A stretch of DNA of 64,000 bases from an uncultured Alphaproteobacteria bacterium (GCA_934203105.1 CAKPYQ010000002.1:8277-72276), one strand, 5' to 3'; counted from the first letter of the stretch, positions 548 to 24,223 are shown. The notes: a model not told the origin generated them from the letters alone. Numbers and translations: made by a program.

Positions 548-3296
548 TTATTTTACGCAGGTAAATTGAGCTGCTGTCGTCGGGTGAACTTCCGCTCCGT
601 TGTAGCCGTCATAAGCAAATCCCGCTTCGTTGGTACAGGAATAAGAGTAGGGCAGGCGATTGTGACGGTCAGATCCCGGATAGGCCAACCAATAATAATT
701 GATGTTATTGATGCCGCAATAATTTGTCGTTCCGGAATCAACCAATGTGTTACAAGAGACACGACCAGTAGTAACTTCTTTCAAAGTCGGCAATCGTCCA
801 CCTAGGTTGGCGCACGTTTTTTTTGCATTTGCAAAGGTTGCTTTACCAACAGGGCATTTTGGATAAACGCATCTGGTAGTGCCGGCCATGTATGAATTCA
901 GACACGTCCAGCCTGGACCGCATTCGTCTTCATAATATGGGCAGACGCCGGCAGAAGCCTCTACATATACCGTGTTGCAACCGGAACTAACGGCTTTCGG
1001 ACAGCATAAGCCGGCCTTGCTGTTATATGGCTGATCGTATGGACAGCAGGTGTTGTCAGAAGCGTTCCAAGTTCTGCTTGCCATTTTACAACAATAATCG
1101 TCCTTATCCGGATCAATAGCCGTTGAACAAGTGTTTGTTTCCGGAAAATAGTTATGACATAGCGTGCAGACGGCTTTATCTTGGCATTCTTTGTTTACAA
1201 CAACTTGACCCGTCGCACAGCAAGCAGACCCGCTCCACAGACGACCGGCAAGCGTACAGCATTCTGCTCCGTTTTCTGGAACATTGCCATAGCAGGTATT
1301 TGTTGCGGCGTCATATGCTTGGCATGTCGTGCAGACGGCTTTATCTTGGCATTCACTGTTTACAACAACTTGACCCGTCGCACAGCAAGCAGACCCGCTC
1401 CACAAGCGACCAGCCGCTGCACAGCATTCTTCGCCATTTTCTGGAATATTGCCATAACAGGTATTTGTTGCTTCTTCGTACGTTTGACATATCGTGCAGG
1501 TCGCTTTATCTTGGCAAGTGCCATTTACAACAACTTGACCCGTCGCACAGCAAGCAGACCCGCTCCACAGACGACCTGCCGCTGCGCAGCATTCTTCGCC
1601 ATTTTCTGGAACATTACCATAACAAGTATTTGTTGCTTCATCATATGCTTGGCATGTCGTGCAGACGGCTTTATCTTGGCATTCACCGTTTACAACAACT
1701 TGACCCGCGGCGCAACAGGCTGACCCGCTCCACAGACGACCGGCCGCCGCGCAACAATCCGCTCCGTTTTCGGGGATATTCCCATAACAAGTGTTTGTTG
1801 CGGCGTCATACGTTTGACATATCGAGCAAGCAGCTTTGTCTTGGCATTCACCGTTTACAACAACTTGACCTGTTGCACAGCAAGCAGACCCGCTCCACAG
1901 ACGACCAGCTGCCGCGCAACACTCCGCGCCGTTTTCGGGAATATTGCCATAGCAAGTGTTTGTTGTGGCGTCATAAACTTGACATACCGAGCAAGTGACT
2001 TTGTCTTGGCAAGTGCCATTTGCAACAACTTGACCCGTGGCGCAACAGGCTGACCCGCTCCACAGACGACCGGCAGCAGCACAACACTCCGCCCCGTTTT
2101 CGGGGATATTCCCATAACAAGTGTTTGTTGCGGCGTCATACGTTTGACATATCGAGCAAGCAGCTTTTACTTCGCAACGGCCGTTTACAACGACTTCATT
2201 GCTTTTGCATTGACACGTCGCCGTATCCGCGCCGATTGGTGTACCGGCCGGACAAGAACAACCTTTTGTTTGGGAATTTCTGACCAACGGCAAAACACAT
2301 TTGGGAATACAAACGCCGTCGTAAATTTCATTGGACGCGGTATCGCATTCGCAACGATAAGACAATAAATTGCAAATTTCCAACATTTGACAATGGCTGT
2401 TTTGGGTGCATTCAACGCAACCCGTGCCGTCAACCCAATAATTTAATCCCTCCGGACAGACGCATTTGTCGTTTTTTTCGATTTGGTTGAGCGGACAAAC
2501 GCAGGTATTATTTTCGATGATGTGGCTTTTTTCACATTCGCACGTTTCTTCCAAAGCGTGTTTAGGCGTTGACGCCGGACATACACATCGGTTGTCTCGA
2601 CAAAATTTAGGTGCCGGACACGCCGGAACACAATAGGTTACGTTTTCGACGCTCTTTAAAGAAAAATAAAAACTCATTTTTTGATGATCGTTTAAACAAA
2701 TTTCGGGGCCGCCTTGGATTTCTTTATCTTCATCATTCCAAACAGTCACTTTTTCAACTGCCGGATTTTCCAAGTTCAACGTGTGTTTACAAACCGCCTT
2801 TCTGACATCTTCAACGTCAACGACAAAGCCGTCAATTTCATCGGTTTTGAAAACTTGCATAGGAAAGGTAGAATCCGGATGTGTCAATTCGGTGTCGATT
2901 TGTTCACCGCCTTGCCAATCGTCCAAGCTTTTATTTGACGTTGCCACGCTGGTTGCATGTAACATTACATCGCTCCACAGGTCGTTAGAGGATTTTTTGG
3001 CCATGCTATATTGATAAATGACAAGCCCGCCGATGGACAGCACACCGATGATCGCCAGCACGCCCAGCATTTCAAGCATGCTACGACCTGCATTATGTCC
3101 CAAGAGGGGACGCGAAAATTTTCGCGCGGCGCGTCCCCTCTTGCCGGCGTTTTCGCAATCGTCATTCTGAGCGCTTGCGAAGAATCTCTCAACTTCCCGC
3201 GCATCATTCACCCGATCAAAAAAATGATTTTTGCAGCCCCCACGCCCCAACTCAAAAATCATTTTTTTGATGTTTAATAATTGATTTTTATTCATT
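548..3296 (-). CDS. Giant cysteine-rich secreted or surface protein with a type IV prepilin-like N-terminal motif (G|RSMLEMLGVLAIIGVLSIGG), paralogue 1
   Basis: A long ORF with AGGAGA 7 nt upstream of the ATG at 3296 (MNKNQLL...). A consensus promoter lies just upstream. The N-terminus matches the N-methylation (prepilin) motif, with Glu at +5 after Gly and an AIIG core. The body is a 55-aa, 8-Cys module repeated seven times, followed by a Cys-rich C-terminal region. Confidence 0.7.
1150..2310. repeat. Seven tandem copies of a 165-bp (55-codon) coding repeat inside the cysteine-rich gene
   Basis: The motif gcagacggctttatcttggcattc and its variants recur at about 1164, 1329, 1497, 1661, 1826, 1991 and 2156. 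The protein shows CQDKAxC..CYGNxPENGxECCAAAGRLWSGSACCAxGQVVxNG repeated seven times. The many ORFs in other frames here (for example 1123-1998 and 1181-1723) are repeat artefacts. Confidence 0.85.
3100..3270. repeat. Cluster of perfect palindromes (REP/RPE-like) lying in frame in the leader-coding region of the cysteine-rich gene
   Basis: The arm caagaggggacgcg at about 3102 pairs with cgcgtcccctcttg, with a nested cgcgaaaattttcgcg. The arm ttcgcaa is paired with ttgcgaa around 3153-3180. A 19-bp perfect inverted repeat atcaaaaaaatgatttttg / caaaaatcatttttttgat lies at 3212-3270. Confidence 0.6.
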
Positions 3297-3349
3297 TTTA
3301 TCTCCTTATTCAGCGTCGACAAATAAAAAAAGAAATAATTATCTTTTAT

Positions 3350-3379
3350 ACTATACACAACCGATTGTTTACTGTCAAG
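3350..3379 (-). promoter_or_regulatory. Near-consensus sigma70 promoter for cysteine-rich gene 1 (TTGACA, 17-bp spacer, TATAGT)
   Basis: The reverse complement reads cTTGACAgtaaacaatcggttgtgTATAGT. It sits about 50 nt upstream of the ATG at 3296. Confidence 0.5.
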
Positions 3380-3469
3380 AGGTATTTTAACGCCAAAATC
3401 AAAAATAACCGATTGAAAATAAATAAATGTTGCCGGAAAAATAGGTTTATAAAAGAAAGTATGTTAATT

Positions 3470-5245
3470 TTACGCTTTTTGAGCCATGAATAAATATCCT
3501 TGGCAGGGCGCTTTGTTTTCCTGACGCAACGTAACTTCTTGGGCTGTAATCTCATCAAAGCCGGCATTTTTCAAGGCCGAATTGATGATGTCAAAGCCGT
3601 GTTGATAACGTCCGTTCGGTTGAAGTGTTATTTGATCGGGATTTAGCGCTTTTTCCACTGTAAAAATAAAAGTGCCCCTCGATGTTAAATATTTATGTAC
3701 TTCTTTAATAATATCGTCTAATTTGTTGATATAACAAAAAACATCTGCAGCGACGATTAAATCAAAAGCTTGCGATACATTTTGCAGATAATCCAAAATG
3801 TCCATCGTAAAAAGCGCATCATAAATATGCTTTTTTTCGGCTTTTTGAATCATTTTTTGTGACATATCGACGCCCGTCAAGCGCTTGGACTCGGTGCGCA
3901 ATAAAGCGCCGCTTAAACCGGTGCCACAGCCTAAATCCAACACGTTTTCAAATGTTTTGCCCGCCGTTTTTTGCGCAATCAATTGCGGAATTTGGCAATT
4001 TAAAATTTGCATTTTTTCATCATAGGTATCCGCAAACGCATCATAAAATGTTTGCGTATAGGCAAAATCAATGTCCGTCCCCGACGATTGTCCGTTTAAA
4101 GCGTTGTTTGTATGAATTGCCAGCGGATTATCGGGAAAGTTTTTTACCCAACCGGAAGCGTAAAGTAATGCCGTTTTGGGTTCTGTTTCAAACCATTTAG
4201 GCAGCATATTTGCCAAACGCAAATGAATAATAGATTGCAGTTGTTTTTGTCCCAAAACCTTAAAATAAAGACCGGCAGCTTCTTCAAAATTGCCCAAATC
4301 TTCCAAGGCAATGGCTAAATTAAACGCAGCTTTTGTATCCGTGGGGTCGATGATAAAAACGTTTCGATACATTTCGAGTGCTTCCATAACGCGATTTTGA
4401 CGATATAACAAAGCCCCTAAATTATTGTAAGCGGCGACATTGTTGACATCTGTGCGCAATACGTCGCGATAGGCTTGTTCAGCCAAATCGGGATTTTCAT
4501 TTTCCAACAACATCGCTTTTTCAAAATAAGCGTCTGTACAAAAACGGTTTACTGCGATTGCTTTTTCAAACGCCGCAAGCGCGTCATTTTTTTGACCAAG
4601 CAGATTTAAAACTTTACCGTATTCAACAAAAAGAAAATCAACATTGTTTGCAATTTTTATTGCTTTTTCAATATATTGTAATGATGAATTGATGTTGTTA
4701 TTTAATCTGTTTTGTACCGATGTTTGATAAAGAGCCTGTACAGAATTCGGATCAATTTTTAAAGCCTCAGCCAATAAATTTTCGGCTTGATTTAAATTGT
4801 TTTGTTGCCGTTCTAACAGAGCCTTGTTCACATAAGCCAACACCATATCGGGGTTGATTTGAATGGCTTTGTCAAAAGCCGTACGTGATTTATCCAATTG
4901 TCCCATTTGGCGATAGATATTTCCCATATTATTTTGGCTTTCGGGCATATCGGCAATTTTTTCATATATAGCTAATGCTTCGTTCAACTTCCCGCTTTCC
5001 TGTAAAGCCACAGCCAAAGAATATTGAAAATCTTTGTTTTTGGGATCGGCCAGCGTGGATTGATAAAGCAATTGACACGCTTCATCAAAAATGCCTTTTG
5101 ACAAGGCAATTAAACCCAAAAAATACAGCGCTTGCGGCAACGCCGGCGATAAATTTAAAACTTGGCGAAAGGCCTTTTCGGCTTCGTCTAATTGTCCGGC
5201 CGCATACAGGTTAATTGCGTTTGATAGTAAGAGGTTTTGATTCAT
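3470..5245 (-). CDS. TPR-repeat protein fused to a C-terminal class I SAM-dependent methyltransferase domain
   Basis: The N-terminal roughly 400 aa consist of repeated 34-aa TPR-like units. The C-terminus carries VLDLGCGTGLSG (SAM motif I) and DLIVAADVFCY (motif II/III). Confidence 0.7.
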   Translation of the reverse strand: MNQNLLLSNAINLYAAGQLDEAEKAFRQVLNLSPALPQALYFLGLIALSKGIFDEACQLLYQSTLADPKNKDFQYSLAVALQESGKLNEALAIYEKIADMPESQNNMGNIYRQMGQLDKSRTAFDKAIQINPDMVLAYVNKALLERQQNNLNQAENLLAEALKIDPNSVQALYQTSVQNRLNNNINSSLQYIEKAIKIANNVDFLFVEYGKVLNLLGQKNDALAAFEKAIAVNRFCTDAYFEKAMLLENENPDLAEQAYRDVLRTDVNNVAAYNNLGALLYRQNRVMEALEMYRNVFIIDPTDTKAAFNLAIALEDLGNFEEAAGLYFKVLGQKQLQSIIHLRLANMLPKWFETEPKTALLYASGWVKNFPDNPLAIHTNNALNGQSSGTDIDFAYTQTFYDAFADTYDEKMQILNCQIPQLIAQKTAGKTFENVLDLGCGTGLSGALLRTESKRLTGVDMSQKMIQKAEKKHIYDALFTMDILDYLQNVSQAFDLIVAADVFCYINKLDDIIKEVHKYLTSRGTFIFTVEKALNPDQITLQPNGRYQHGFDIINSALKNAGFDEITAQEVTLRQENKAPCQGYLFMAQKA

Positions 5246-5392
5246 TTATAACGTCCTTTTAAATGCCAATAGTAAGGGCTTTTGATTTTGATTTCAAGTT
5301 AAATTTAACAACTTTGTCACAAAAGTTGAATTGCGTTTTGTTAATACGATGATATACTTCAATTAAAATATAACGATGAGAAGGATTTTTTT

Positions 5393-5836
5393 ATGGAAAA
5401 CATCAATAAAAAAGCGATTTCGGAATTATCAGAATTGTTGCACGCGAACAATTTGCGGGAAATTGAGTACGAAGCGGATAATGTCCGCATTCGGGTGGTG
5501 GCTAATTTGCCCGAAGAAAAAGGCCTGACGGTGGCGCCGGTTATGTCGGCTGCCAATGCGCCTGTTTCGGCTCCGGCAAAGCCTGCTGCTGATGCGGATA
5601 AGGAAAATCAAGTAAAATCACCGATGGTGGGTGTTGTTTATTTGTCGGCGGATCCGTCTTCTGCGAACTTTGTGCGGGAAGGGGATTTGATCGGGGTCGG
5701 TCAAACTTTATGTTTGATTGAGGCGATGAAAACATTTAATCCGGTGAAATCGACAAAATCCGGACGCGTAAAAAAGATTTTAGTTCAATCGGGTATGCCG
5801 GTCGAATTCAATGAACCTTTATTTGTGATTGAATAA
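5393..5836 (+). CDS. accB: Biotin carboxyl carrier protein of acetyl-CoA carboxylase
   Basis: The EAMK biotinylation motif is present (CLIEAMKTFNPV). An Ala/Pro-rich linker precedes it. accC follows immediately. Confidence 0.85.
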   Translation: MENINKKAISELSELLHANNLREIEYEADNVRIRVVANLPEEKGLTVAPVMSAANAPVSAPAKPAADADKENQVKSPMVGVVYLSADPSSANFVREGDLIGVGQTLCLIEAMKTFNPVKSTKSGRVKKILVQSGMPVEFNEPLFVIE

Positions 5837-5840
5837 GTAA

Positions 5841-7193
5841 ATGATGTTTGAAAAAGTTTTAATTGCTAATCGCGGAGAAATTGCTTTACGGATTCACCGA
5901 GCCTGTAAAGAAATGGGAATAAAAACGGTTGCCGTTCATTCGACGGTTGATGCGGACGCTATGCATGTTCGCTTGGCGGACGAAGCCATTTGTATCGGGC
6001 CGGCGCCTGCGCGTGATTCGTACTTAAATAAAGCGGCGATTATCAGCGCGGCATTGATTTGCGGAGCAGATGCTATTCACCCCGGCTATGGTTTTTTGTC
6101 GGAAAATGCGGATTTTGCGGAAATGGTCGAAGCGCACGGATTAACCTTTATCGGCCCCAAAGCGTCAATGATCCGCAAAATGGGAAATAAAGTTTTGGCG
6201 CGTGAGGCTGCTCAAAACGCCGGATTGCCAGTGTTAAGCGGTTCTGACGGTGCTGTTTTAAACTTGGACGCAGCAACGATTATTGCCGACAAAATCGGCT
6301 ATCCCGTTTTGGTCAAAGCGGCAAACGGCGGCGGCGGAAAAGGAATGAAAGTTGCTTTCAGCCGTGATGAATTGGAAAGCGCGTTTGTTTTGGCGCAAAA
6401 GGAAGCCAAAGCCGCATTCGGTGATGATACGGTTTTTATTGAAAAATACCTGCAAAACCCGCGCCATATAGAAGTCCAGATTTTGGCCGATAATTATGGG
6501 CATGTGGTTTGTTTAGGTGAACGCGATTGTTCTTTGCAACGCAATAACCAAAAGATTTTGGAAGAAACGCCGTCGCCGGCTTTGAACAGGCAACAACGAG
6601 AAGCTTTGTTTGAATCGGCCAGAACGGCGATTGAAAAAATCGGTTATTCGAATGCGGGGACTTTGGAGTTTTTATTCGAAGACGGCAAATTTTATTTTTT
6701 GGAAATGAATACGCGTCTTCAAGTCGAACACCCGATTACGGAAATGGTGACCGGTATTGATATTGTTCGGGAGCAAATTCGTTTGGCTGCGGGCGCTCCG
6801 TTGGGGTACAGTCAAAAAGATGTTCGCATAGAGGGTTGTGCCATTGAATGCCGGATTAACGCCGAAAATCCGGAAACGTTTATTCCAAGCCCCGGCAAAA
6901 TCGGTTGTTGGCATGTTCCCGGCGGTTTATGGGTTCGTGTTGATTCGGCGATGTTTTCGGGGTATAAAGTACCGCCTCAATATGACAGTTTGGCCGCTAA
7001 ATTGATTGTGTTTGGTCGTACCCGCAACGGTGCTTTGATGCGCTTGCGCCGTGCTTTGGACGAATTTGTCATTGACGGCATTGAAACGACAATTCCGTTG
7101 CATCAACGCTTGGTTCACGAAGCCGATTTCATCGACGGGCAATACAATATTCATTGGTTGCAACATTTTTTGGAAAAAAATACCAAAAAGTAG
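5841..7193 (+). CDS. accC: Biotin carboxylase
   Basis: MMFEKVLIANRGEIALRI... contains the ATP-grasp biotin carboxylase motifs. The protein is 450 aa. Confidence 0.9.
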   Translation: MMFEKVLIANRGEIALRIHRACKEMGIKTVAVHSTVDADAMHVRLADEAICIGPAPARDSYLNKAAIISAALICGADAIHPGYGFLSENADFAEMVEAHGLTFIGPKASMIRKMGNKVLAREAAQNAGLPVLSGSDGAVLNLDAATIIADKIGYPVLVKAANGGGGKGMKVAFSRDELESAFVLAQKEAKAAFGDDTVFIEKYLQNPRHIEVQILADNYGHVVCLGERDCSLQRNNQKILEETPSPALNRQQREALFESARTAIEKIGYSNAGTLEFLFEDGKFYFLEMNTRLQVEHPITEMVTGIDIVREQIRLAAGAPLGYSQKDVRIEGCAIECRINAENPETFIPSPGKIGCWHVPGGLWVRVDSAMFSGYKVPPQYDSLAAKLIVFGRTRNGALMRLRRALDEFVIDGIETTIPLHQRLVHEADFIDGQYNIHWLQHFLEKNTKK

Positions 7194-10737: not shown

Positions 10738-10767
10738 AATGAATTATTTTTCATTTTTTTGCAAAAT
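10738..10767. repeat. 30-bp direct repeat, copy 2 (the authentic 3' end of the Sel1 gene)
   Basis: Identical to 9902-9931. Confidence 0.8.
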
Positions 10768-11454
10768 TGGTTGCAATTCATTGACTTTTTTTGCCCCTTC
10801 CATCAATTGCGGCATCGTCATTTGTCCGGCTACTTCTTTAATGGCCTTTAATAAATCGTCTTGGCTGGCTTTCATCGCGGGGTGATTATAGGATAAAGTC
10901 AACCATACATACGCACACGTAAAGTTTTCTTGTGTGACGCAAAATTCCGCCATTTCTAACATAGCTTCCGGATCAGCAGCCAATGCCCGCAATTCAGTTT
11001 CTTTAATCGTATTTTCTTTATCTTGAACGGCTTTGATTTTGGCGATTTTATCCTCTGCTTCGTCCTTTAATTTTTCATCGTCGCTTGACAAAACTTTTTC
11101 ATAATAAGCAATGGCTTTATCGGCTGATATTTCCGTTCCGCGCCCGTTGGCGTACATATTCGCTACCGCCATTTGTGATAAAGGATTCTTTTCGGCCGAC
11201 TTTAAATATAATTCAAAAGCTTTCTTTTCGTCTTTTTCAACGGCTTTACCTTCCTCATACATCGATGCGGCTAAATACATTGCAACGCTGTTGCCTTTTT
11301 CAATCAACGGCTCTAATAACCCGACAGACGCCGCAGATTGAATGTTCAACATTTCCATTTGCGGGGCAATTTCTTGATAATCTTCCTGTAACGTGGAACA
11401 AAATGCGCCCGATGCACACAAACAAAGCGATAATGCAATATATGATATTTTCAT
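10744..11454 (-). CDS. Sel1-like repeat protein with signal peptide
   Basis: The signal peptide is MKISYIALSLCLCASGAFC. Sel1 units follow (AASMYEEGKAVEKDEKKAFELYLKSAE, MAVANMYANGRGTEISADKAIAYYEK). Confidence 0.7.
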   Translation of the reverse strand: MKISYIALSLCLCASGAFCSTLQEDYQEIAPQMEMLNIQSAASVGLLEPLIEKGNSVAMYLAASMYEEGKAVEKDEKKAFELYLKSAEKNPLSQMAVANMYANGRGTEISADKAIAYYEKVLSSDDEKLKDEAEDKIAKIKAVQDKENTIKETELRALAADPEAMLEMAEFCVTQENFTCAYVWLTLSYNHPAMKASQDDLLKAIKEVAGQMTMPQLMEGAKKVNELQPILQKNEK

Positions 11455-13693: not shown

Positions 13694-15244
13694 TTATTTA
13701 TCGCTTTTCTTATGCTCTGATGACGATACAGGCAAAACAGGATCGTCCGATAAAGCGTTTTTCTTTATGGCTTTTTCCTGTTCTAATTTTTCTTTATACC
13801 GTTTGCGGGATAAAAATAAGAATATCTTTTGCGGCAAAGGGCTGATGCTTTCGTAAAACAAGGACAAGAAAGATGATACAACAACGCGTTCGTTGACTTG
13901 GCCTTCTTCATTGACTTTGCGTAAAAACAGCAATGACAGTAATGCTAAAACCGTTGCAAATAAAAAGAAAAAGCTCCAATGCGAAATTTGTAATAAAAAG
14001 ACTTCTTTGATGTCGTTATTGCTGACCCACCGGATTAAAAATGACAGTTGCTTGTCGGCAAAATAGTCCGCAAATAAGCCGCCCAAAATCGGCGCTGTTC
14101 CGGCCATTAAAGCGTTGACAGTACCGTTGACGGACAGGTAGATAGCGGCGTTTCCTTTGGGCGCCAGCTTTAACGCGATGTTATTTGACGCCAATGTGAT
14201 GCCGGCTTGGGCTATGCCCATCAGCGTATAAATCAAAACCAACAAAGGAATGGTATACGAATGCTTGCTGGGAAAACCCGTGAAGATAAACAAAAAAATG
14301 CACAAAATGTACAACGGACCGGATACCATTAAGATGGATTTATTGTTAAAAGTGTCGCTGATTTTTCCCCAAGAGCGCATAACAAGCACATTAACGACTT
14401 GCGTTAAGGTAGTCAAAACCAAAACCAAGCTCATATCCAGTTTTAACGTTTTTAATAAAACGACCGTGAAAAATGGAACGGCCAAGTTAATTGAAAAGTT
14501 CCAAGAGCTTAAAAACATTACTAAATGCGTAAAGTTACGGTCTTTAAAGACTTTAAAGATGCGTTTGAGAAAGGCTTCGTCAGAGGTTGGCTTTTCCATT
14601 GGCGGTTCGCCGATTTTATAGTAAACGTATATGGTATAGACGCCGACCAAGAAAGCAATGAAGAAAACCAAAGCATAAAACTTATTTGTCGAAAACGGCC
14701 AAAATTTCAAAGCCAGCGCAATCGTCATCGTTGTCAATAATGCCGTGGCCATACTATAAGCTAAACGTTTTGAAAAGAATGCCCCCAATATTTGCGGCGG
14801 GATCAAATCTTTCATCCATGAATTCCACGCACTGCCGGCCATTGACGAGCCGACATATCGCAACGTATAGCAAACGGCTAAAATGCCGGCAGCCATCGGC
14901 ATATCTGGGGCTAATGCCGAAATAGCAATTCCCAAAATGCACAATCGTCCGAACGATGAAATGTAAAAGCATATAGCGCGTCGGTTTCGATATTTTTCGG
15001 TCAGCCAAGCTCCCGGAAATTGCGCCAAGTTCGCCAAGGCAGACAAAGCTACCAAATACCCGATCAGAGCGTTTGAAGCATTCATCATCAATGCAACAGC
15101 AATTAAGATCGGGCCGGATATCAGGCTTTCGAACAATTGAGCAAAAATGCCGTCTTGCAAAACCCAAAACAAGCTGCGTTTGACTTGTTCTTCCGATAAA
15201 GGCTTGGGTGTGATTTGTTGTTTTATATAGCTGATAATACTCAT
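13694..15244 (-). CDS. MFS-type transporter (12-14 transmembrane segments)
   Basis: The protein is hydrophobic throughout with many predicted helices and a Lys-rich C-terminal tail. Substrate unknown. Confidence 0.6.
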   Translation of the reverse strand: MSIISYIKQQITPKPLSEEQVKRSLFWVLQDGIFAQLFESLISGPILIAVALMMNASNALIGYLVALSALANLAQFPGAWLTEKYRNRRAICFYISSFGRLCILGIAISALAPDMPMAAGILAVCYTLRYVGSSMAGSAWNSWMKDLIPPQILGAFFSKRLAYSMATALLTTMTIALALKFWPFSTNKFYALVFFIAFLVGVYTIYVYYKIGEPPMEKPTSDEAFLKRIFKVFKDRNFTHLVMFLSSWNFSINLAVPFFTVVLLKTLKLDMSLVLVLTTLTQVVNVLVMRSWGKISDTFNNKSILMVSGPLYILCIFLFIFTGFPSKHSYTIPLLVLIYTLMGIAQAGITLASNNIALKLAPKGNAAIYLSVNGTVNALMAGTAPILGGLFADYFADKQLSFLIRWVSNNDIKEVFLLQISHWSFFFLFATVLALLSLLFLRKVNEEGQVNERVVVSSFLSLFYESISPLPQKIFLFLSRKRYKEKLEQEKAIKKNALSDDPVLPVSSSEHKKSDK

Positions 15245-15356
15245 TTTCCACCTTTATATAAATGTATTTAATGACCAGTATAGAATCTTTTTATGAAAAA
15301 ACAAGAAAAAAAGGCTTGCTTTTTTGTAAAAAATGATTAGAATGCATAATCGTTAA

Positions 15357-15433
15357 GGGTCTGTAGCTCAGTTGGTTAGAGCGGGGCGCTCATAACGCCT
15401 TGGTCGGGGGTTCGAGTCCCTCCGGACCTACCA
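15357..15433 (+). tRNA. tRNA with anticodon CAU (Met, or Ile2 if C34 is modified to lysidine). The TTGGTC variable region favours the Ile2 type.
   Basis: The sequence is GGGTCTGTAGCTCAGTTGGTTAGAGCGGGGCGCTCATAACGCCTTGGTCGGGGGTTCGAGTCCCTCCGGACCTACCA. An upstream promoter is CTTGCT..TAGAAT at 15315-15343. The downstream hairpin aagccgaag/ctttggctt is followed by a T-run. Confidence 0.85.
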
Positions 15434-15675
15434 TAAAATTTTGTCCCACAGGGGCGCTATAAAAAAAGCCGAAGTTTATTGCTTTGGCTTTTTCTTTTTT
15501 TATGGGACTCGAATCCCGAGGGGTTCTACAATTGCGCCTAAATTGTTTTTTCCATAATTTTATCCTTTCGGGATCAAAATTTTACTTTAAAAAAATCTCC
15601 ATTCAAGATTTTTTTCTTTTCATCTTGCAAAATATGGAATATATTCCTATGTATAAAGGTAAAGAGAGGAAAACT

Positions 15676-18177
15676 ATGAATAACGAAAAATTAACAGACA
15701 GAAGTCAAGGTTTTATACAATCGGCTCAATCATTGGCAGTGCGTCATTCGAACCAATTTTTGATGCCCGAGCATTTGTTAAAAGTGATGTTGGACGATAA
15801 AGAAGGTATGGCATCTTCTTTGTTGGCGCAGGCCGGCGCAAATGTTGATTTTGTGCGGGCAGAAGTTAATGATGATGTTGATAAATTGCCACAAGTGCAG
15901 GGCAATTCTGTGCAGGTTTCGGCATCTCAAAGCTTTATGAAAGTGTTGGATTTGGCCGAACAAATGGCGGACAAGGCCAAAGATTCTTATGTGACGGTCG
16001 AACGGTTATTGCAAGCATTGCTTTCAATAAAATCGTATGGCGTTGACGTGCATAAATTAAATCAAGTTATCAATAATATGCGACAAGGACGTACTGCTGA
16101 AAGTCCCACGGCCGAAGACAGTTTCGATGCTTTGAAAAAATACGCAACGGATTATACCGAGCGCGCAAAACAAGGCAAGCTTGATCCCGTCATCGGACGA
16201 GATGAAGAGATTCGTCATACAATACAAGTTTTATCCAGACGAACCAAAAACAACCCGATTTTAATCGGTGAACCGGGTGTCGGTAAGACCGCGATTGTTG
16301 AAGGTTTGGCTTTGCGTATCATCAACGGCGATGTTCCGGAAAGCTTGGCGCATAAGCGTTTAATGGCGTTGGATATGGGGGCTTTGATTGCGGGGGCTAA
16401 ATATCGCGGTGAGTTTGAAGAACGTTTAAAAGCGGTGTTGCAAGAAGTGGAAGCCGCTAACGGTCAAATCATTTTGTTTATTGATGAAATGCATACGGTC
16501 GTCGGTGCGGGAGCTACATCAGGATCGATGGACGCATCGAACTTGTTAAAGCCGGCTTTGGCGCGCGGTGAATTGCATTGTATCGGCGCCACAACGTTAA
16601 AGGAATATCAAAAGTATATCGAAAAAGATCAAGCTTTTGCGCGGCGTTTCCAACCTGTTTTTGTCGGCGAGCCGGCGGTTGAAGAAACTGTATCTATCTT
16701 GCGCGGGATAAAACAAAAGTATGAATTACATCACGGGGTGCGTATTTCCGATGCGGCGTTGGTAACGGCGGCGGTGATGTCTAACCGATATATCACAGAT
16801 CGTTTTTTGCCCGATAAAGCAATTGATTTGATTGATGAAGCGGCCAGCAAATTGCGTATGGCAATCGATTCAAAGCCGGAGCATTTGGACGAAATCGATC
16901 GGCACTTGATTCAATTGAAAATCGAGCGTGAAGCTTTGAAAAAAGAAACGGATCAAGCGTCCAAAGAACGTTTGGAAAAAATCGAAAAAGATATTCAAAA
17001 ATTGGAAAAACAATCCGCAGAAGAAACGAAACTGTGGAGCGTTAAGAAAAGCAGCATTCAAGAGGCCGGCCATTTGCGTGAAGCTTTGGATAAAGCCAAA
17101 ATCGAAGTGGAGCAGGCGTTGCGTGACGGTCTTTATGAACGTGCGGGCGAATTGCAATATAAAGAGATTCCGGATTTGGAAAAACGCTTAAATGAAATTA
17201 ACGCGCAAAACCAAAATCAAGCCACCGTTGAAACGGTAACGCCGGATATTATTGCCGGAGTTGTTTCCAAATGGACGGGGATTCCGGTGGATAAATTGAT
17301 GAGCAATGAAAAAGAAAAATTGCTGGATATGGAAAAAGCGCTTGCCAGACGCGTTGTCGGACAAGATGAAGCCATTACGGCGGTTGCTAATGCTGTACGG
17401 CGTTCACGTTCAGGATTAAAAGACCCGAATCGTCCGATCGGTTCTTTCTTATTTTTGGGGCCGACCGGCGTCGGTAAAACAGAGCTGGCAAAAGCTTTGG
17501 CAGAATTTTTGTTTGATGAAGAAAGCGCTTATTTGCGTATCGATATGTCCGAATATATGGAAAAGCATTCTGTGGCGCGATTAATCGGTGCGCCTCCGGG
17601 ATATGTAGGCTATGACGAAGGCGGCGTGTTGACGGAAGCTGTGCGTCGTCGGCCGTACCAAGTTATTTTGTTTGATGAAGTCGAAAAAGCGCATCCTGAT
17701 GTCTTTAACATATTGTTGCAGGTTTTGGACGACGGCCGTTTGACCGACGGGCAAGGGCGTACTGTTGATTTTAAAAATACGTTTTTGATTATGACTTCAA
17801 ACTTGGTTACAGGAGAAAAGCAAGAAGATGTGATGGCTTCTTTAAAAGCTTTCTTCCGTCCGGAATTTATCAACCGGTTGGACGAGATTATTGTTTTCCA
17901 CCCGTTGAAGAAAGAACACATCAGATCGATTGTTGATATTCAATTAAAACGTTTACAAGATCGTTTGTCCGATCGTCATATCGAATTACAGTTGGACGAT
18001 AAAGCCAAAGATTGGTTGGCCGAAAACGGATATGATGAAAACTTCGGTGCGCGTCCTTTGAAACGCTTAATCCAACAAGAAGTCGAAAATCCGTTGGCGA
18101 TAAAATTGTTAAACGGGGATATCAAAGATAATTCGGTTGTCAAAATATCCGCAAATAAAGATAAGTTGATAATTTAA
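15676..18177 (+). CDS. clpB: Chaperone ClpB (AAA+ disaggregase)
   Basis: The start is [11 protein letters not shown], with a GAGAGGAAAA ribosome-binding site. Two NBDs are present ([15 protein letters not shown] and [15 protein letters not shown]) with a middle coiled-coil. The track ORF starts upstream and overlaps the tRNA terminator. Confidence 0.9.
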
Positions 18178-18255: not shown

Positions 18256-18960
18256 TTATTTATTGTCATCGTATTTTTTCATCAAGTCCATTAACTTAAA
18301 TGAATTTATACCTTTCGGTGATACGATAAAATGATCTTGCATATTGATGTTTAATTTGCGGGTCGTGTCTTGGATTAAGTGCGTCAGGCGAATGTCATCG
18401 GGCGATGGTCGCGTATCTCCCGACGGGTGATTGTGTACCATAATAAAAGACATTGCATGATTTTTAATCAAGACTTCTACAACTTCTCGTATATATACAG
18501 AGGCTTGATCGACAGTCCCCTTTTGCAATTGCACGGCGTCAATAACGCAACACGATGCATCCAATAAAATCAAATAGACATACTCTTTTTTCTCGCGCCC
18601 CAGCAAAGCATAACAATAATTTTCAATGCTTTCCCAAGAGGAGAGCTTTGTTTTGGATTGCATATCTTTCTTTAACAAACGCGTTTGCATATAAAAGACC
18701 GTTTTGATCAGAATTGCCGTATTTTCTTTAATCCCTTTAATTTTCATCAATTCGTCGACGGAAGCCGTTAAAACTTCACCCAAAGAACCGAAATGCAAAA
18801 TTAAAGACTTTGCAAGCGGTTTAACATCAACGCGCGGAATTGCATACGTTAATAACAGCTCTAACAATTCATAGTCAGCCCATGAGCCGGCGTCTGTTTT
18901 GATAAAGCGCTCTTTTATCCGTTGCCGGTGACCTTTTAAAAAGTCTTCATTTTCAGTCAT
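18256..18960 (-). CDS. radC: RadC-family JAB/MPN domain protein
   Basis: The start is MTENEDFLKGHRQRIKERF. It carries the HNHPSGDTRPSPDD JAMM motif. The start lies 1 nt after the map stop codon, so the long track ORF extension is spurious. Confidence 0.8.
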   Translation of the reverse strand: MTENEDFLKGHRQRIKERFIKTDAGSWADYELLELLLTYAIPRVDVKPLAKSLILHFGSLGEVLTASVDELMKIKGIKENTAILIKTVFYMQTRLLKKDMQSKTKLSSWESIENYCYALLGREKKEYVYLILLDASCCVIDAVQLQKGTVDQASVYIREVVEVLIKNHAMSFIMVHNHPSGDTRPSPDDIRLTHLIQDTTRKLNINMQDHFIVSPKGINSFKLMDLMKKYDDNK

Positions 18961-18961
18961 C

Positions 18962-19756
18962 TTACTTTTTTTCTTTGTATGGCGGGAAATCAAATCCTTT
19001 CGGGGATAAAGTAAATATCTCCGGTCCGTTTTTGGTGATGCCGATTGTATGTTCAAATTGTGCGGATAAGCTGCGATCCTTTGTGATTGCCGTCCAGCCG
19101 TCGGACAAGACCAACGTTGCGCCGCCACCAAAGTTAACCATAGGTTCGACCGTAAAAATCATACCTTCTTTGATTTTCATTCCTTCGCCTTTGCGGCCAT
19201 AGTTTAACACATTGGGCAATAAGTGAAAAGCTCTGCCGACCCCATGTCCGCAAAAATCTTCGACGACGGAAAAACGTTCAGCTTTTGCGCATTTTTCAAT
19301 CGCATTGCCGACGTCACCCATTGTGTTACCGATAACGGACGCTTTAATGCCCGCCATCATCGAATCGTACGCGTTTTGAACCAAGCGTTTGGCTTTGACG
19401 GACGGCGTGCCGACAAAGTACATACGGCTGGAATCTCCAAACCACCCGTCCACAATCGGTGTAATATCAATATTGATAATATCGCCGTCATATAACACTT
19501 TTTCGCCGGGGATACCGTGACAAACAATGTGATTGGCCGAAATGCAACTTGCTTTCGGATAACCGCGATATCCTAATGTAGCCGGAATACCGCCGTGATC
19601 GCGCATAAATTCTTCCAATAACTTATCCAGCTGTCCCGTCGTAACGCCCGGAACAACAAACGGAGTAATATAATCCAACGTTTCGGCGGCTAAGCGACCG
19701 GCGCGGCGCATACCGTCAAATTCTTCAACAGAATATAAAGCAACTTCTTTTGACAT
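18962..19756 (-). CDS. map: Methionine aminopeptidase type I
   Basis: The start is MSKEVALYSVEEFDGMRRAGRLAA, with an AAGGAAAGGA ribosome-binding site. The metal ligands D, D, H, E, E lie in conserved context. Confidence 0.9.
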   Translation of the reverse strand: MSKEVALYSVEEFDGMRRAGRLAAETLDYITPFVVPGVTTGQLDKLLEEFMRDHGGIPATLGYRGYPKASCISANHIVCHGIPGEKVLYDGDIINIDITPIVDGWFGDSSRMYFVGTPSVKAKRLVQNAYDSMMAGIKASVIGNTMGDVGNAIEKCAKAERFSVVEDFCGHGVGRAFHLLPNVLNYGRKGEGMKIKEGMIFTVEPMVNFGGGATLVLSDGWTAITKDRSLSAQFEHTIGITKNGPEIFTLSPKGFDFPPYKEKK

Positions 19757-19850
19757 AATTTCCTTTCCTTTTAATGTAAAACAGTATATACTTAAAAAAA
19801 GCAAAAGGGTAGTGTTTTTTATAAAAAAAAGGATAAATTTATGACAAACC

Positions 19851-19949
19851 GACAAAAATTGATTTTAATGATTATTATTTTGTGCGTCATCGGGATTTTT
19901 TTCTTTTCTAATTCTCCGTTGACAAACGTGCGTTAAAGAAAAAAAGCTC
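19851..19949 (+). CDS. Possible small membrane peptide (32 aa, MTNRQKLILMIIILCVIGIFFFSNSPLTNVR)
   Basis: An AAGGATAAA ribosome-binding site sits 7 nt upstream. The peptide has a single hydrophobic helix. It lies between the serS terminator and map. Not in the ORF track (shorter than 60 aa). Speculative. Confidence 0.25.
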
Positions 19950-19975
19950 CGACATCAAAATCGGAGCTTTTAAAA
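19938..19975. terminator. Bidirectional rho-independent terminator (serS on one side)
   Basis: A perfect 8-bp stem agctccga/tcggagct is flanked by an A-run and a T-run. Confidence 0.65.
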
Positions 19976-19988
19976 AAGTTTATTTAAC

Positions 19989-21275
19989 TTATTTTTTCTT
20001 GATTTCGGTCATACCGCCCATATATGGTCTTAATGCTTCCGGAATACGTACGGAACCGTCAGCTTGCAAGTTGTTTTCCAAGAATGCAATCAACATACGC
20101 GGCGGAGCAACAACCGTATTATTTAACGTATGAGCAAAGTATTTTTTACCGTCTTTGCCGGCAACGCGGATTTTTAAGCGGCGTGCTTGCGCATCGCCCA
20201 AAGTCGAGCAAGAACAAACTTCAAAATACTTCTTTTGACGCGGAGACCAAGCTTCAACGTCCAAAGATTTAACTTTTAAATCAGCCAAGTCACCCGAACA
20301 GCATTCCAAAGTCCGAACAGGAATATCCATCGAACGGAATAATTCAACCGACATTTTCCACATTTTATCGTACCAAGCCATACTATCTTCGGGTTTGCAA
20401 ACAACAATCATTTCTTGTTTTTCGAATTGGTGGATACGATATACGCCGCGTTCTTCAATACCGTGAGCGCCTTTTTCTTTACGGAAGCAGGGCGAATAGC
20501 TGGTCAACGTATAGGGTAATTTATCCTCCGGAATAATTTGATCAATGAATTTACCGATCATTGAATGTTCGCTGGTGCCGATTAAATACAAATCTTCACC
20601 TTCGATTTTGTACATCATAGCTTCCATTTCCGCAAAGCTCATTACACCGGTGACGACTTGCGAGCGAATCATAAACGGCGGAATGCAATATGTAAAGCCT
20701 TTGTTGATCATAAAATCGCGCGCATAGGCCAAAATCGCCGAATGCAAGCGCGCAATATCGCCCATCAAATAATAAAAGCCGTTTCCGGCAACACGGCGGG
20801 CAGAATCTAAATCGATACCGTTAAAGCTTTCCATAATGTCCGTATGATAAGGTATTTCAAAATCAGGAACTTTCGGTTCGCCGAAACGTTCAAGTTCAAC
20901 GTTTTCGCTGTCGTCCTTACCGATATGAACAGACGGGTCAATGATGTTCGGAATGATCATCATCCGTTTTGTAATTTCGGATTGAAATTGTTCTTGTTCT
21001 TTTTCCAATTCGACAATTTGATCGCCGATTTTTTGGCTTTCAGCTTTGATTTGTTCGGCTTGATCTTTGTTACCTGATGACATTAAACTGCCGATTTGTT
21101 TTGAAAGCTTTGTTCTTTCGGCGCGCAAAGTTTCGACTTTTACGATTGCAGCGCGGTTTTTCTTATCTAAATCAATTACTTCGTCGACCAAGACAAGCTT
21201 ATTGTCTTGGAATTTCTTTTTAATATTTTCCTTTACAAGTTCGGGATTTTCACGAATCAGTTTAATGTCAATCAT
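19989..21275 (-). CDS. serS: Seryl-tRNA synthetase
   Basis: The N-terminus is a coiled-coil (MIDIKLIRENPELV...). The catalytic core is class II. Confidence 0.9.
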   Translation of the reverse strand: MIDIKLIRENPELVKENIKKKFQDNKLVLVDEVIDLDKKNRAAIVKVETLRAERTKLSKQIGSLMSSGNKDQAEQIKAESQKIGDQIVELEKEQEQFQSEITKRMMIIPNIIDPSVHIGKDDSENVELERFGEPKVPDFEIPYHTDIMESFNGIDLDSARRVAGNGFYYLMGDIARLHSAILAYARDFMINKGFTYCIPPFMIRSQVVTGVMSFAEMEAMMYKIEGEDLYLIGTSEHSMIGKFIDQIIPEDKLPYTLTSYSPCFRKEKGAHGIEERGVYRIHQFEKQEMIVVCKPEDSMAWYDKMWKMSVELFRSMDIPVRTLECCSGDLADLKVKSLDVEAWSPRQKKYFEVCSCSTLGDAQARRLKIRVAGKDGKKYFAHTLNNTVVAPPRMLIAFLENNLQADGSVRIPEALRPYMGGMTEIKKK

Positions 21276-21389
21276 CTTTTATAACTCCTTTAAAATAAAG
21301 ATAACTTTTATCTTTTACTCTGCTTTGCATAAAAAATCAAGTAAAATGTTAAAAAAAGGAAGATATTTTCATACCTTCCTTATCATTGA

Positions 21390-22154
21390 TTATTTGTTGC
21401 GGAAAATATCGTTTAATTTCGGCACGATTGCCAACATTTGCCCCAAATACTCATCGCGCGTCGCATGCGCAAAAGCGTTTGTGTCTTTTGGGAAACATTT
21501 ACCGCCGTAACCGAATTTTCCGTCCGGACCCGGAACAAAAGTATGTGTCGGGCTGATATAACCGGACAACAAAACGCCTTTTTGAACCGTGTCATAGTCA
21601 GCGCCCATTTTTTGACAATAGTCATAAACGGCGTTAAAGTAAGTCACTTTCAAAGCGCCAAACACGTTATGAACGTATTTTGTAATTTCGGCTTCTAATG
21701 AGCTCATCACCAAATATTTTTTGTTTGGGAAGATTTCTTTTAATAAATCAACGTGAGCAGTAAAGACGATGTCTTGATGTTCAAAGTCGCTGATTGACGT
21801 GCGTTCGGTTAAAAATTCGGGCATAAAGTAAACTTCTTTGCCGGTTTCTTTGGATAAAGCAGCGCTTGTCCCCGGCAAAATCGTCGTTCTGATAAAAATC
21901 GGCGTGTTGTCCGGCAACGTTTTTAAAATGCTTTTGTACAAAGTCATATCTTGGCTGCCGTCGGCTTCTGTCGGCACATGCAAGCTCATAAAAATTACGT
22001 CGCTGGCGGATAAATCATCATTAAAACCTTTGGGCGGGTCGGACACTAAAACTTTATGTTCCGTGTTTTTTTCAATCCAAGCCTTTAATGCGCCACCAAT
22101 GACGCCGCAACCGACGATACCAACAGTTCTTTTAGTCATAATATTTCCTTTCAT
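21390..22154 (-). CDS. UDP-glucose/GDP-mannose dehydrogenase family protein, short form lacking the C-terminal UDP-sugar-binding domain
   Basis: GIVGCGVIGG forms the Rossmann fold. FGYGGKCFPKD is the catalytic-Cys motif. The protein ends about 35 aa after it. A terminator hairpin aggaag/cttcct follows. Confidence 0.55.
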   Translation of the reverse strand: MKGNIMTKRTVGIVGCGVIGGALKAWIEKNTEHKVLVSDPPKGFNDDLSASDVIFMSLHVPTEADGSQDMTLYKSILKTLPDNTPIFIRTTILPGTSAALSKETGKEVYFMPEFLTERTSISDFEHQDIVFTAHVDLLKEIFPNKKYLVMSSLEAEITKYVHNVFGALKVTYFNAVYDYCQKMGADYDTVQKGVLLSGYISPTHTFVPGPDGKFGYGGKCFPKDTNAFAHATRDEYLGQMLAIVPKLNDIFRNK

Positions 22155-22286
22155 TGAAATTCGATAATGGCGTCATTTTATCACCCTATATCGATATGTC
22201 AAGATAAAATTATCGGGTTTAGGTTTTACTTTGCCGACCGCATAGAAAATCAGATTTAAGAAAAGCGCCGTTTATTCATTTTTTGT

Positions 22287-22315
22287 TTGACAAAAAACGG
22301 GTGCTTTTATATGAT
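22287..22315 (+). promoter_or_regulatory. Near-consensus sigma70 promoter for cysteine-rich gene 2 (TTGACA, 17-bp spacer, TATGAT)
   Basis: The sequence is TTGACAaaaaacgggtgcttttaTATGAT, about 30 nt upstream of a ribosome-binding site (AGAGAGAAA) and the ATG at 22349. Confidence 0.55.
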
Positions 22316-22348
22316 GCTTAAATAGGAAGTTTTTTATAAAGAGAGAAA

Positions 22349-24223
22349 ATGAAAAACAATCAATGCAATAATAAAATCAATCAAACCGGCCGGTCGATGC
22401 TTGAAATATTAGCGGTGCTTTTAATTATGGGAATGCTGTCGATTGCGGCATTATTGGGCTTTAAATACGCGATGGACAACCTCAAAGCGAACGAGATTTT
22501 AAATAATGTGCGTTTGGCGGCAGCGGTCGTTTTGCAACATGAAGAAATCTTGGTTGAAAGCGACGGAAGCATTGATATTTCAGAATTTCAAAAAACAATT
22601 TTGTACGATATGTCGGCCGAGCAGGTGGGGGAAGAATATGCTTTTGCGATCAATGTGTTTGAAGTTCAAAAAGGCGTTTGCGATGCGGTTATTCGCCGTG
22701 CTGATAATCAATATTTGATTCGTTTGGACGGGGAAGATACGACCGAATGCCAAGACAAAAACAAAATGCAATTTATATTTAATATGGACGAGGCGTGTCC
22801 TTCAAATTGTCCGCCGGAGCGTTGTTGTAATAAAAACAAGTGTTGCAGCGAAGGTCAAACGTGCATTAACGGCCGGTGTGTAGATGAAAATTTATGTGAC
22901 AATTGGGACACACAACAAGTTTGCGGAACGTCGACATGTTGTGATAAAGACAAATTTTGTTGCGCGGATAAATGTTGTGAAACACCGTTTTGTTCGGCGG
23001 ATCAAAGCAAATGTTGCGGAACGGCTTTGTTGGGGGGCGTTGAAACGAACTTGATTCCCGACGCAAGCAATCCGTCCGAATGCGTTTGCCCCACGGTGAA
23101 TGGAACCCGGCTGGTATTAAAAAACGGTTCTTGCGAATGTCCGGACGCCGGCTTTACTTTGGTCGATGGGGCGTGTGTTCGCTTTAATTGCGACGAAGGA
23201 ACGGGCGGTAATACATACGAATGCTATATTAATGGTAAATTGTGCGGACATTTTTGTACTGCCGAAGCTTCGGATTGTGAAAACGGTATTTGCCGGCAAA
23301 AAGATTGTGTTGCAGGACAACCGTTGCTTTACCATGGTCATCCGGGATATTATTACGGATGCAAAAAAGAATATAACTCTGATGTAACATGTTATATGAC
23401 GACCAAAGATGGTGTATACAAGTGCTATCGAAATGATGATGATTTATTGTGTGCTCTAGCAAAAATGAATGCGTCGGGTGAGCTGTATTTTATCTATGGA
23501 ACATGCGACGATAACATTTGCAAAGCGATTGATCCTAATGCTGTGTTTATGCGTTGGGGGGATGCAAACAGCTATAATGGCGGGTGTTTGTTTGATGATA
23601 ACTTGTTGTGTACGCCTTACGGCACGAAATATTGGACTTGTTTTAAAAACGGCTATAAATGCGGTACGGAGTGCACAAATCCGTTAAACTGCGGAACTTG
23701 CAACGATTATGATTGTCCGGACGGATTGAGCTATAACAGAGAGTTAAAACGTTGTGAAACAGAAACTTATTACTGTGACGTAACACAAGGAAAATGGTCA
23801 GAAGTTTGTTATATGAAAAGTGACAATTCGCGATGCGCTACAATTAACAGCAATGCTCCTGAGAAGGGTTTTGCTTACGGAACATGCGTGGCTGATAAAT
23901 GTACCGCTGCGGGTATGAAGTTTGCATATGTGAGCGAGGAAAATTATTGGGGCTGCCTTGATGAGAATACGGGGATTAGTTGTATCCCTAATTATTCTGT
24001 ATGCTATTATAATGGCAAGCTTTGCGGAAACTATTGTCAATTGGGAGGGACAGAGTGCAAACAAGCTTATCAAAAGCAATGTGCCGCAGCGGGATACTGC
24101 CCGCAAACCGGTTATTTAATTGATGATTGCGTATGCGATGGGCAAGAAAGCGAAGTTGACGGCAAACGTTATTGTTGTCCGGAGGGACATCGATATGAAA
24201 ACGGCGCTTGCACGATGTTGTAA
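22349..24223 (+). CDS. Giant cysteine-rich secreted or surface protein with a type IV prepilin-like N-terminal motif (MKNNQCNNKINQTG|RSMLEILAVLLIMGMLSIAALLGF), paralogue 2
   Basis: It has a short basic leader ending in Gly, Glu at +5 and a hydrophobic helix. A domain of about 100 aa follows. The next roughly 480 aa contain about 90 Cys in irregular Cys-rich modules. Confidence 0.7.
   Translation: MKNNQCNNKINQTGRSMLEILAVLLIMGMLSIAALLGFKYAMDNLKANEILNNVRLAAAVVLQHEEILVESDGSIDISEFQKTILYDMSAEQVGEEYAFAINVFEVQKGVCDAVIRRADNQYLIRLDGEDTTECQDKNKMQFIFNMDEACPSNCPPERCCNKNKCCSEGQTCINGRCVDENLCDNWDTQQVCGTSTCCDKDKFCCADKCCETPFCSADQSKCCGTALLGGVETNLIPDASNPSECVCPTVNGTRLVLKNGSCECPDAGFTLVDGACVRFNCDEGTGGNTYECYINGKLCGHFCTAEASDCENGICRQKDCVAGQPLLYHGHPGYYYGCKKEYNSDVTCYMTTKDGVYKCYRNDDDLLCALAKMNASGELYFIYGTCDDNICKAIDPNAVFMRWGDANSYNGGCLFDDNLLCTPYGTKYWTCFKNGYKCGTECTNPLNCGTCNDYDCPDGLSYNRELKRCETETYYCDVTQGKWSEVCYMKSDNSRCATINSNAPEKGFAYGTCVADKCTAAGMKFAYVSEENYWGCLDENTGISCIPNYSVCYYNGKLCGNYCQLGGTECKQAYQKQCAAAGYCPQTGYLIDDCVCDGQESEVDGKRYCCPEGHRYENGACTML

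Follow-up and report, generated by a model that had tools for sequence, protein, structure and literature searches.

The two genes described here lie in a 64-kb stretch of DNA from an uncultured alphaproteobacterium (hereafter the window; bases 8277-72276 of the 107.8-kb ENA contig ERZ28614815 scaffold_201). They are best interpreted, with moderate confidence, as encoding modular type IV pilin-like proteins that are most likely carried on a pilus as binding proteins. Each protein has three parts, a predicted variant class III signal peptide, a type IVb-like pilin head with one conserved disulfide, and a long body predicted to consist of disulfide-stapled beta-hairpins. The putative signal peptide consists of a polar leader ending in Gly, followed by Arg at +1, Ser at +2, Glu at +5 and approximately 20 hydrophobic residues. 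Gene 1 adds seven tandem repeats of 55 amino acids (aa) and a distinct C-terminal domain. The first-pass annotation of the window had proposed a wholly uncharacterised class of pilus-presented adhesins; presentation on a pilus fits the modular pilin concept (PMC8179133), but the novelty of the class does not hold, as modular and tip pilins are already known. What is new is an unannotated, lineage-specific family that is missed by the standard signature, together with its invariant Arg+1, the size and Cys content of the grafted modules, and bodies that have no structural relative. The features of the two genes are as follows.

3350-3378, minus strand: sigma-70-like promoter of gene 1, TTGACA-17-TATAGT (11/12 match, best site of its region)
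548-3295, minus strand: gene 1, coding sequence of a modular pilin-like protein of 915 aa (open reading frame (ORF), ATG with AAGGAG, and matching ENA gene call)
3086-3295, minus strand: putative leader of gene 1, aa 1-70, ending in Gly(-1), composed of MNKNQ and about 65 extra residues (from the translation)
2633-3085, minus strand: predicted pilin module of gene 1, aa 71-221, with the helix RSMLEMLGVLAIIGVLSIGGLVIY and a globular head containing Cys169/Cys200
2168-2632, minus strand: Cys-rich region 1 of gene 1, aa 222-376, CxC...C modules (from the translation)
1013-2167, minus strand: seven tandem 55-aa repeats of gene 1, aa 377-761, 8 Cys each, the last degenerate (Tandem Repeats Finder (TRF) and repeat register)
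551-1012, minus strand: C-terminal region of gene 1, aa 762-915, possibly lectin-like
22287-22315, plus strand: sigma-70-like promoter of gene 2, TTGACA-17-TATGAT (11/12 match, joint best of its region)
22349-24223, plus strand: gene 2, coding sequence of a modular pilin-like protein of 624 aa (ORF and orthologues)
22349-22390, plus strand: putative leader of gene 2, aa 1-14, MKNNQCNNKINQTG (translation and family leader statistics)
22391-22795, plus strand: predicted pilin module of gene 2, aa 15-149, with the alpha1 helix, a beta-sheet and Cys111/Cys134
22796-24220, plus strand: Cys-rich body of gene 2, aa 150-624, a predicted disulfide-rich array of short beta-hairpins

Gene extents and promoters

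Both ORFs were recovered as first annotated, apart from the start of gene 1, which had been placed one base too far upstream at 3296. The open frame of gene 1 spans 548-3358 on the minus strand in the ORF scan and its likely start is the ATG at 3295, 6 nucleotides (nt) downstream of AAGGAG; the product of the ENA gene call on the contig is identical to the 915-aa protein. Orthologues of gene 2 share 97% and 78% identity with it, and synteny is preserved in one of the related loci (L007). The full-length gene 2 query retrieved at least two orthologues, and the wider family was reached by a query with the N-terminal domain alone.

The consensus promoters reported ahead of each gene were confirmed. 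Whereas 0.24 sites of the form TTGACA-N17-TATNNT would be expected in the window, it contains three, including the promoters of gene 1 and gene 2. A consensus promoter was rejected as a trait of the family, as it is seen in 9% of members against a background of 2.3%.

The shared N-terminal pilin module

The N-terminal segments GRSMLEMLGVLAIIGVLSIGGLVIY and GRSMLEILAVLLIMGMLSIAALLGF are both present and identical at 15 of 25 positions. BLASTP aligned approximately 170 N-terminal residues of the two proteins (27% identity, E 5e-17), and since the remainder is unalignable, the paralogy first claimed for the two proteins as a whole is restricted to their N-terminal module. A six-frame scan located the motif exactly twice in the 64 kb, in gene 1 and in gene 2. 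Both read G-R-S-M-L-E, extended as RSMLE(M/I)L..., ahead of a hydrophobic stretch of about 20 residues, and Glu+5 is present in each. Class III signal peptides comprise a hydrophilic leader ending in Gly or Ala and then 20-25 hydrophobic residues, often with Glu5 (PMC10191384), and the start of the family matches this published definition. The hydrophilic leader of gene 2 is MKNNQCNNKINQTG and that of gene 1, of 70 aa including Gly, ends in ...GHNAG.

The curated prepilin models do not recognise either protein. Gene 2 scored 11.2 bits (E 0.3) on Pfam N_methyl (PF07963), under the cutoff of 21.2, and 10 bits on TIGR02532, under the cutoff of 16.3, and gene 1 matched neither. The first-pass annotation had named failure of the N_methyl model as grounds for giving up the pilin interpretation, and such failure is formally what was found; it is not taken as decisive because the evidence of the fold and of the family points the opposite way. 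N_methyl gave weak, sub-threshold matches in 29 of 30 aligned family members (best E 0.0019), and Bundlin and PilS_N, both type IVb families, matched some members weakly. The best NCBIfam matches of the module are 'prepilin peptidase-dependent' proteins, all under cutoff, and its best PDB profile matches are pilins (E ~0.3).

A Cys pair in the globular head is conserved across the family alignment. An AlphaFold2 model of gene 2 residues 1-150, built from that alignment (predicted local distance difference test (pLDDT) 83.8, predicted template modelling score (pTM) 0.72), has a helix from residue 13 to 63 and then a beta-sheet, and has the 'lollipop' fold in which a long N-terminal alpha-helix lies on an antiparallel beta-sheet. 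Structural comparison matched this model to the type IVb pilin CofA (8.8), Clostridioides difficile PilA1 (7.7), TcpA (7.0), PilS (5.9), FimA (5.2), the pseudopilins EpsI and GspI (5.2) and the large minor pilins TcpB and CofB (4.7). It is concluded that the 135-150 residues after the leader form a genuine pilin module with a divergent signal motif that curated models miss.

A large family in gut Alphaproteobacteria

Searching with the N-terminal domain of gene 1 returned 1,468 protein clusters, the best 120 of which are pilin-sized (88-268 aa); most members of the family have 120-250 aa. The start of these proteins is near-invariant, a polar leader and then G-RSM(V/I)EMLGVLAIIGVLSIGG(I/L)AGY..AM...AN. 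A set of 232 sequences was gathered with a pattern that fixed Gly-1, Ser+2 and Glu+5 and permitted Arg or Lys at +1; all 232 have Arg in this position, and there is almost no variation from +6 to +20. Leaders in 120 motif-bearing database proteins are 5 to 100 residues long as called, with a mode of 6-7, and all are polar and end in Gly.

In a scan of one genome per species, the motif was present at no fewer than 185 places. Among the 80 of these loci that were listed, 76 are from metagenome-assembled genomes (MAGs) titled Alphaproteobacteria, Rhodospirillaceae or proteobacterium, and the four under other taxon labels are probably from mis-binned MAGs. The MAGs come from sources that include sheep, goat, buffalo, roe deer, rabbit and human gut, and nearly all are gut-derived. 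The suggestion that relatives would be restricted to symbionts of amoebae or arthropods was not borne out, as they are found in gut MAGs of mammals, and an amoeba or arthropod symbiont origin was rejected on this distribution. The GroEL of the window is 77% identical to that of one such MAG contig.

Related loci were sampled to 1.2 Mb, and the 87 loci and the window together contain 114 family members, and as many as 11 were counted in the contigs sampled from one MAG. The genes are solitary and lie amid housekeeping genes, in one example between rplA and rplL. Over half of the 104 complete family ORFs in this set exceed 300 aa, so the giant Cys-rich members are a regular part of the family; one ORF, from L049:3923 onward, has more than 1,642 aa and 112 Cys and is still open at the contig end.

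The cysteine-rich bodies

The pilin module is followed by 475 residues of Cys-rich, independently folding modules in gene 2 and about 690 in gene 1, and it is by architecture only that the two proteins qualify as modular pilins. The mature proteins contain 94 Cys (gene 1, 11.1%) and 66 Cys (gene 2, 10.8%), numbers that are both even, which would be the case if all Cys were paired in disulfides. Neither body matched Pfam, nor any PDB entry by sequence. The likeness to EGF, TNFR, Cys-knot or insect antifreeze folds put forward by the first-pass annotation was not recovered in sequence or structure comparison.

Cys-rich region 1 of gene 1 matched nothing in Pfam or PDB; a segment of a family member in L035 shares 37% identity with it. 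The 55-aa modules with 8 Cys noted earlier are present in gene 1 as tandem repeats, for which TRF reported a period of 165 bp, 6.1 copies, 84% matches and scores of 1210-1378. For the last ~150 residues of gene 1 no homologues and no PDB sequence match were found. This region reached E 0.062 on Lectin_C (PF00059), with 14.5 bits against a cutoff of 22.6 and over the first half of the profile only, and a lectin-like end module is a guess. Matches of the same region to actinoporins in PDB were at chance level and were rejected.

A search of 1.84 billion representative proteins found only 35 relatives of the gene 2 body at E ≤ 0.001, and nearly every full-length relative retrieved starts with a G-R-(S/T)-x-x-E pilin-like module. 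One of the family proteins, P0123 (1,664 aa, N-terminus GRTMEEMLGVL...), combines approximately 14 Cys repeats of the gene 1 type with a body of the gene 2 type, which indicates that modules are shuffled within the family. A confident AlphaFold2 model of the gene 2 body from 22 sequences (pLDDT 85.6, pTM 0.67) consists almost entirely of short beta-hairpins; its structural matches are generic beta-repeat proteins only, and it matched no solved structure.

Two further observations concern Cys-rich sequences. A plus-strand antisense ORF of 291 aa (1123-1998) lies inside the tandem repeats of gene 1, as do TTG(A/G)CA-17-TATCTT sites at 1154, 1319, 1484 and 1649 (plus strand, 165-bp spacing); these are most likely by-products of the repeats and not genes or promoters. 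In the related locus L091, two adjacent ORFs (14596-15549 and 15546-16748), near a homologue of the ATPase described below, encode ordinary Sec-type signal peptides followed by Cys-rich sequence (e.g. ...ARTCPVGGSPSPLNPQYCCKGPY), so the Cys-rich exported proteins of this clade are not confined to pilin-like N-termini.

Proposed assembly and alternative explanations

If these are pilus-carried binding proteins, the hydrophobic helix would insert the protein into the inner membrane and an A24 prepilin peptidase would cleave behind Gly on the cytoplasmic face to release the leader. Oxidation of the Cys-rich ectodomain would take place in the periplasm, and alpha1 would dock the large subunit into a type IV filament composed of the family's many small pilins. 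Within this filament the large subunit would most probably be at or near the tip, like CofB/TcpB or the PilB/PilC of Streptococcus sanguinis, where its rigid Cys-rich stalk and end modules would be exposed and could serve for binding or adhesion in the gut.

The first-pass annotation proposed a search of the full genome for a prepilin peptidase and assembly genes. Such genes are present in relatives: two A24 peptidases and one divergent ATPase turned up in the 87 loci, and none of the three shares an operon with pilin genes. The peptidases (Peptidase_A24; L004, E 4.7e-21, and L066, E 1.6e-14) are both ~230 aa, and Pfam detected no methylase domain in either. Prepilin peptidases that lack this domain are known (PMC10191384). 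Of the N-methylation motif originally claimed, Gly-1, Glu+5 and the hydrophobic helix are present, but methylation itself is doubtful because these peptidases show the protease domain only; if peptidases of the L004/L066 type act on these proteins, they would more likely cleave them without N-methylating them.

The ATPase (L021:16431-18314, 627 aa) belongs to the T2SSE family of the PilT/GspE superfamily (E 2.7e-28) and is nearest to PilT, ComGA, DotB, GspE and PilB. Its rimP-nusA-infB neighbourhood is kept in close relatives, and canonical GFTLVE pilin-like ORFs flank a distant homologue. At its N-terminus the L021 protein is extended by ~300 aa, a segment that includes about five Pro-rich repeats, each roughly 33 aa long (SRFAPPPVAPQVVDEPIVSETVIQPEPEFVAEDD).

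Several points weigh against pilus-borne proteins. The curated prepilin models fail for both proteins, and Arg+1 and Met+3 lie outside the usual prepilin motif. The 69-residue leader predicted for gene 1, with its hairpin-forming sequence, is far outside the family norm. Both proteins keep Glu+5, which the capping subunit of known tip complexes lacks (PMC10191384), and a disulfide-rich domain of 600-850 residues might not be able to pass an outer-membrane secretin. The window encodes no prepilin peptidase, platform protein, ATPase or secretin, and neither do the ~16.7 kb read from the flanking source contig (8.3 kb on its left and 8.5 kb on its right). The sole ATPase found in relatives is divergent (Walker A GPTGMGKTT), far under every NCBIfam cutoff, and solitary next to housekeeping genes, and tblastn found no PilC-like platform protein in the 1.2 Mb of related loci. 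A secretin was likewise not found in this sample. Negatives obtained with the PilT and PilC queries are weak. The 1.2 Mb represents less than one genome equivalent spread over ~40 genomes, in which a single-copy gene is expected less than once on average, so the absences of machinery carry little weight.

The strongest of the alternatives, though an unlikely one, is that these are envelope proteins that are never polymerised, with the helix, cleaved or uncleaved, doing no more than anchoring them in the inner membrane and the body acting in the periplasm or envelope, for instance as a structural or binding protein. The scattering of single family genes amid housekeeping genes would suit this, as would the lack of assembly machinery, save the one divergent ATPase, near the ~80 family loci examined, and the bodies would be very large for export through a secretin. 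However, Glu+5, which forms a salt bridge between subunits in filaments (PMC10191384), is present in 232 of 232 sequences (at a position fixed by the search pattern, as were Gly-1 and Ser+2), the rest of alpha1N is nearly invariant, and the complete pilin head is retained. A plain anchor should need neither this conservation nor the head, and both therefore tell against it; in addition, many members are pilin-sized and resemble filament subunits.

It is less probable still that the proteins belong not to an extended pilus but to a short pseudopilus of the kind used in type II secretion systems (T2SS), as its minor subunits or its substrates, with the bulky subunit either capping a periplasmic pseudopilus or being released. 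Up to 11 members occur in the sampled contigs of one MAG, compared with five T2SS pseudopilins, the best structural matches are type IVb major pilins, and no T2SS genes were seen. Least likely, and very improbable given Glu+5, the near-invariant alpha1N and the pilin fold, is an ordinary Sec signal peptide or signal-anchor on simply secreted or anchored Cys-rich proteins with a coincidental likeness to pilins, despite the sub-cutoff N_methyl and TIGR02532 scores and the occurrence in this clade of Cys-rich proteins with ordinary Sec-type N-termini (the L091 ORFs).

Comparison with known pilins

The large type IVb tip pilins CofB, of the CFA/III pilus of enterotoxigenic Escherichia coli (ETEC), and TcpB, of the toxin-coregulated pilus (TCP) of Vibrio cholerae, have the same plan of a pilin plus further modules. 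They are encoded inside a pilus operon, one per system, whereas the genes here are solitary and belong to a large paralogous family, and their bodies have no detectable similarity to those of gene 1 and gene 2. The best fold matches of the head domain are type IVb major pilins (CofA, TcpA, PilS, BfpA; PF05307, PF08805), and as in type IVb pilins the +1 residue is not Phe and some members match Bundlin/PilS_N weakly. The type IVb subclass is further marked by leaders of ~15-30 aa and by genes clustered with the machinery, along with the non-Phe +1. In contrast, leaders in this family are mostly 6-7 aa, which is more type IVa-like, +1 is always Arg, the genes are scattered and not clustered, and no member passes a curated threshold in the searches run. 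Type IVb pili have been reported only in Proteobacteria (PMC10191384).

Modular pilins consist of a pilin module with other modules grafted onto it, and in a census such proteins numbered more than 1,200, spread over 264 architectures and reaching 860 aa at most (Raynaud et al. 2021, PMC8179133); known examples include some with several domains or with repeats. As the census was based on IPR012902, and the matching Pfam/TIGRFAM models fail on gene 1 and gene 2, the present family would probably escape it. The grafted modules here also differ from those of the census in matching no database domain or solved fold, with ~11% Cys and lengths of up to 1,664 aa. In S. sanguinis the modular pilins are PilB (pilin plus vWA) and PilC (pilin plus lectin) (PMC8179133; see also PMC9934059), while the host here is a diderm alphaproteobacterium. 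GspK, a T2SS minor pseudopilin found with GspI and GspJ, has an extra domain that is alpha-helical and inserted inside the pilin fold (PMC8179133), unlike the C-terminal, all-beta and Cys-rich modules of this family.

If the proteins are filament subunits, censuses based on IPR012902 would overlook an entire pilin family, specific to this lineage and comprising more than 1,400 protein clusters, and the range of modular pilins would widen to lengths above 1,600 residues and to Cys-rich folds for which no solved relative exists. Poorly known gut Alphaproteobacteria of humans, ruminants and rabbits would also gain a candidate adhesion system with a large and variable repertoire. If the proteins are merely membrane-anchored, the pilin module has been reused as an anchor, which would also be new. 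The invariant Arg+1 offers a simple handle on prepilin peptidase specificity.

A more far-reaching proposal, possible but offered tentatively and with considerable doubt, is that uncultured gut Alphaproteobacteria have a dedicated type IV filament system, marked by the invariant G|RSMxE signal, whose giant, disulfide-rich tip or shaft subunits, built on new beta-hairpin folds, form a large and swappable repertoire. There would be at least ten such genes per genome, each with its own promoter, diversified by module shuffling and tandem-repeat expansion, and the system would parallel, in bacteria, the variant Cys-rich surface proteins that eukaryotic parasites carry. The in-frame insertions found in several leaders would be tolerated as the leader is discarded.

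The leader of gene 1

Gly(-1) of gene 1 is residue 70 and is preceded by 69 residues. The family member P0047 begins MNKNQSG and continues directly with RSM, and the same MNKNQ start in gene 1 suggests an in-frame insertion; the ~65 extra residues look like the product of such an insertion into the leader-coding DNA. This DNA contains the following elements.

3102-3271, minus strand: region of the leader-coding sequence with two strong inverted repeats (blastn self-hits, pattern search, RNA fold and inverted-repeat scan)
3271-3253 and 3233-3215, minus strand: arms of an A/T-rich stem of 19 bp (blastn self-hits)
3143-3130 and 3114-3101, minus strand: arms of a GC-rich stem of 14 bp, CAAGAGGGGACGCG / CGCGTCCCCTCTTG (inverted-repeat scan)

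The GC-rich stem was matched over 13 bases by the pattern search and over 14 bp by the inverted-repeat scan, and the RNA fold of the leader-coding region gave z = -3.2. Both inverted repeats are in frame, without stop codons, between the ATG and the Gly(-1) codon, and no second copy of them is present in the window. An alternative TTG start just upstream of the gene 1 motif lies within the hairpin stem and has no ribosome-binding site. A GC-rich hairpin upstream of Gly(-1) was rejected as a family trait, as a perfect stem of 10 bp or more was found only in gene 1 of the window.

Long in-frame extensions upstream of Gly(-1) were also observed in loci L009, L033, L041, L043, L055, L060 and L085, in L011, L017 and L034, and in proteins P0128, P0138, P0143, P0144, P0146, P0147 and P0151. 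Strings that recur in these extensions ('VILSGREGSMDSSANAFRMT', 'CHSELVSESI', 'FGRAAR' and 'IGGAPTRALSPR') resemble translated repeat elements. The extensions may be insertions tolerated in a cleaved leader, or elements of the 5' untranslated region absorbed by over-long gene calls.

Other genes in the window

The rest of the window has a housekeeping character, with accB/accC, msrA, groEL, clpB, map, serS, ruvC, yebC, yidC, tmk, holB, pepN and tRNA synthetases. It also encodes Sel1-repeat proteins at 10744-11454 and 49167-49862 (both minus strand) and a subtilase of 1,057 aa (Peptidase_S8) at 26465-29638 (plus strand); proteins of both kinds are often tied to host association or secreted functions. 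RadC-like (18256-19131) and methionine aminopeptidase (18962-19855) genes, both on the minus strand, overlap by ~170 nt as listed, and the TTG start of the former has probably been called too far upstream. Adjoining gene 2, a 254-aa ORF (21390-22154, minus strand) contains a partial N-terminal and central domain of UDP-glucose/GDP-mannose dehydrogenase without the C-terminal domain. It may be a gene remnant, and the same short form (249 aa) is found beside the gene 2 orthologue in L007.

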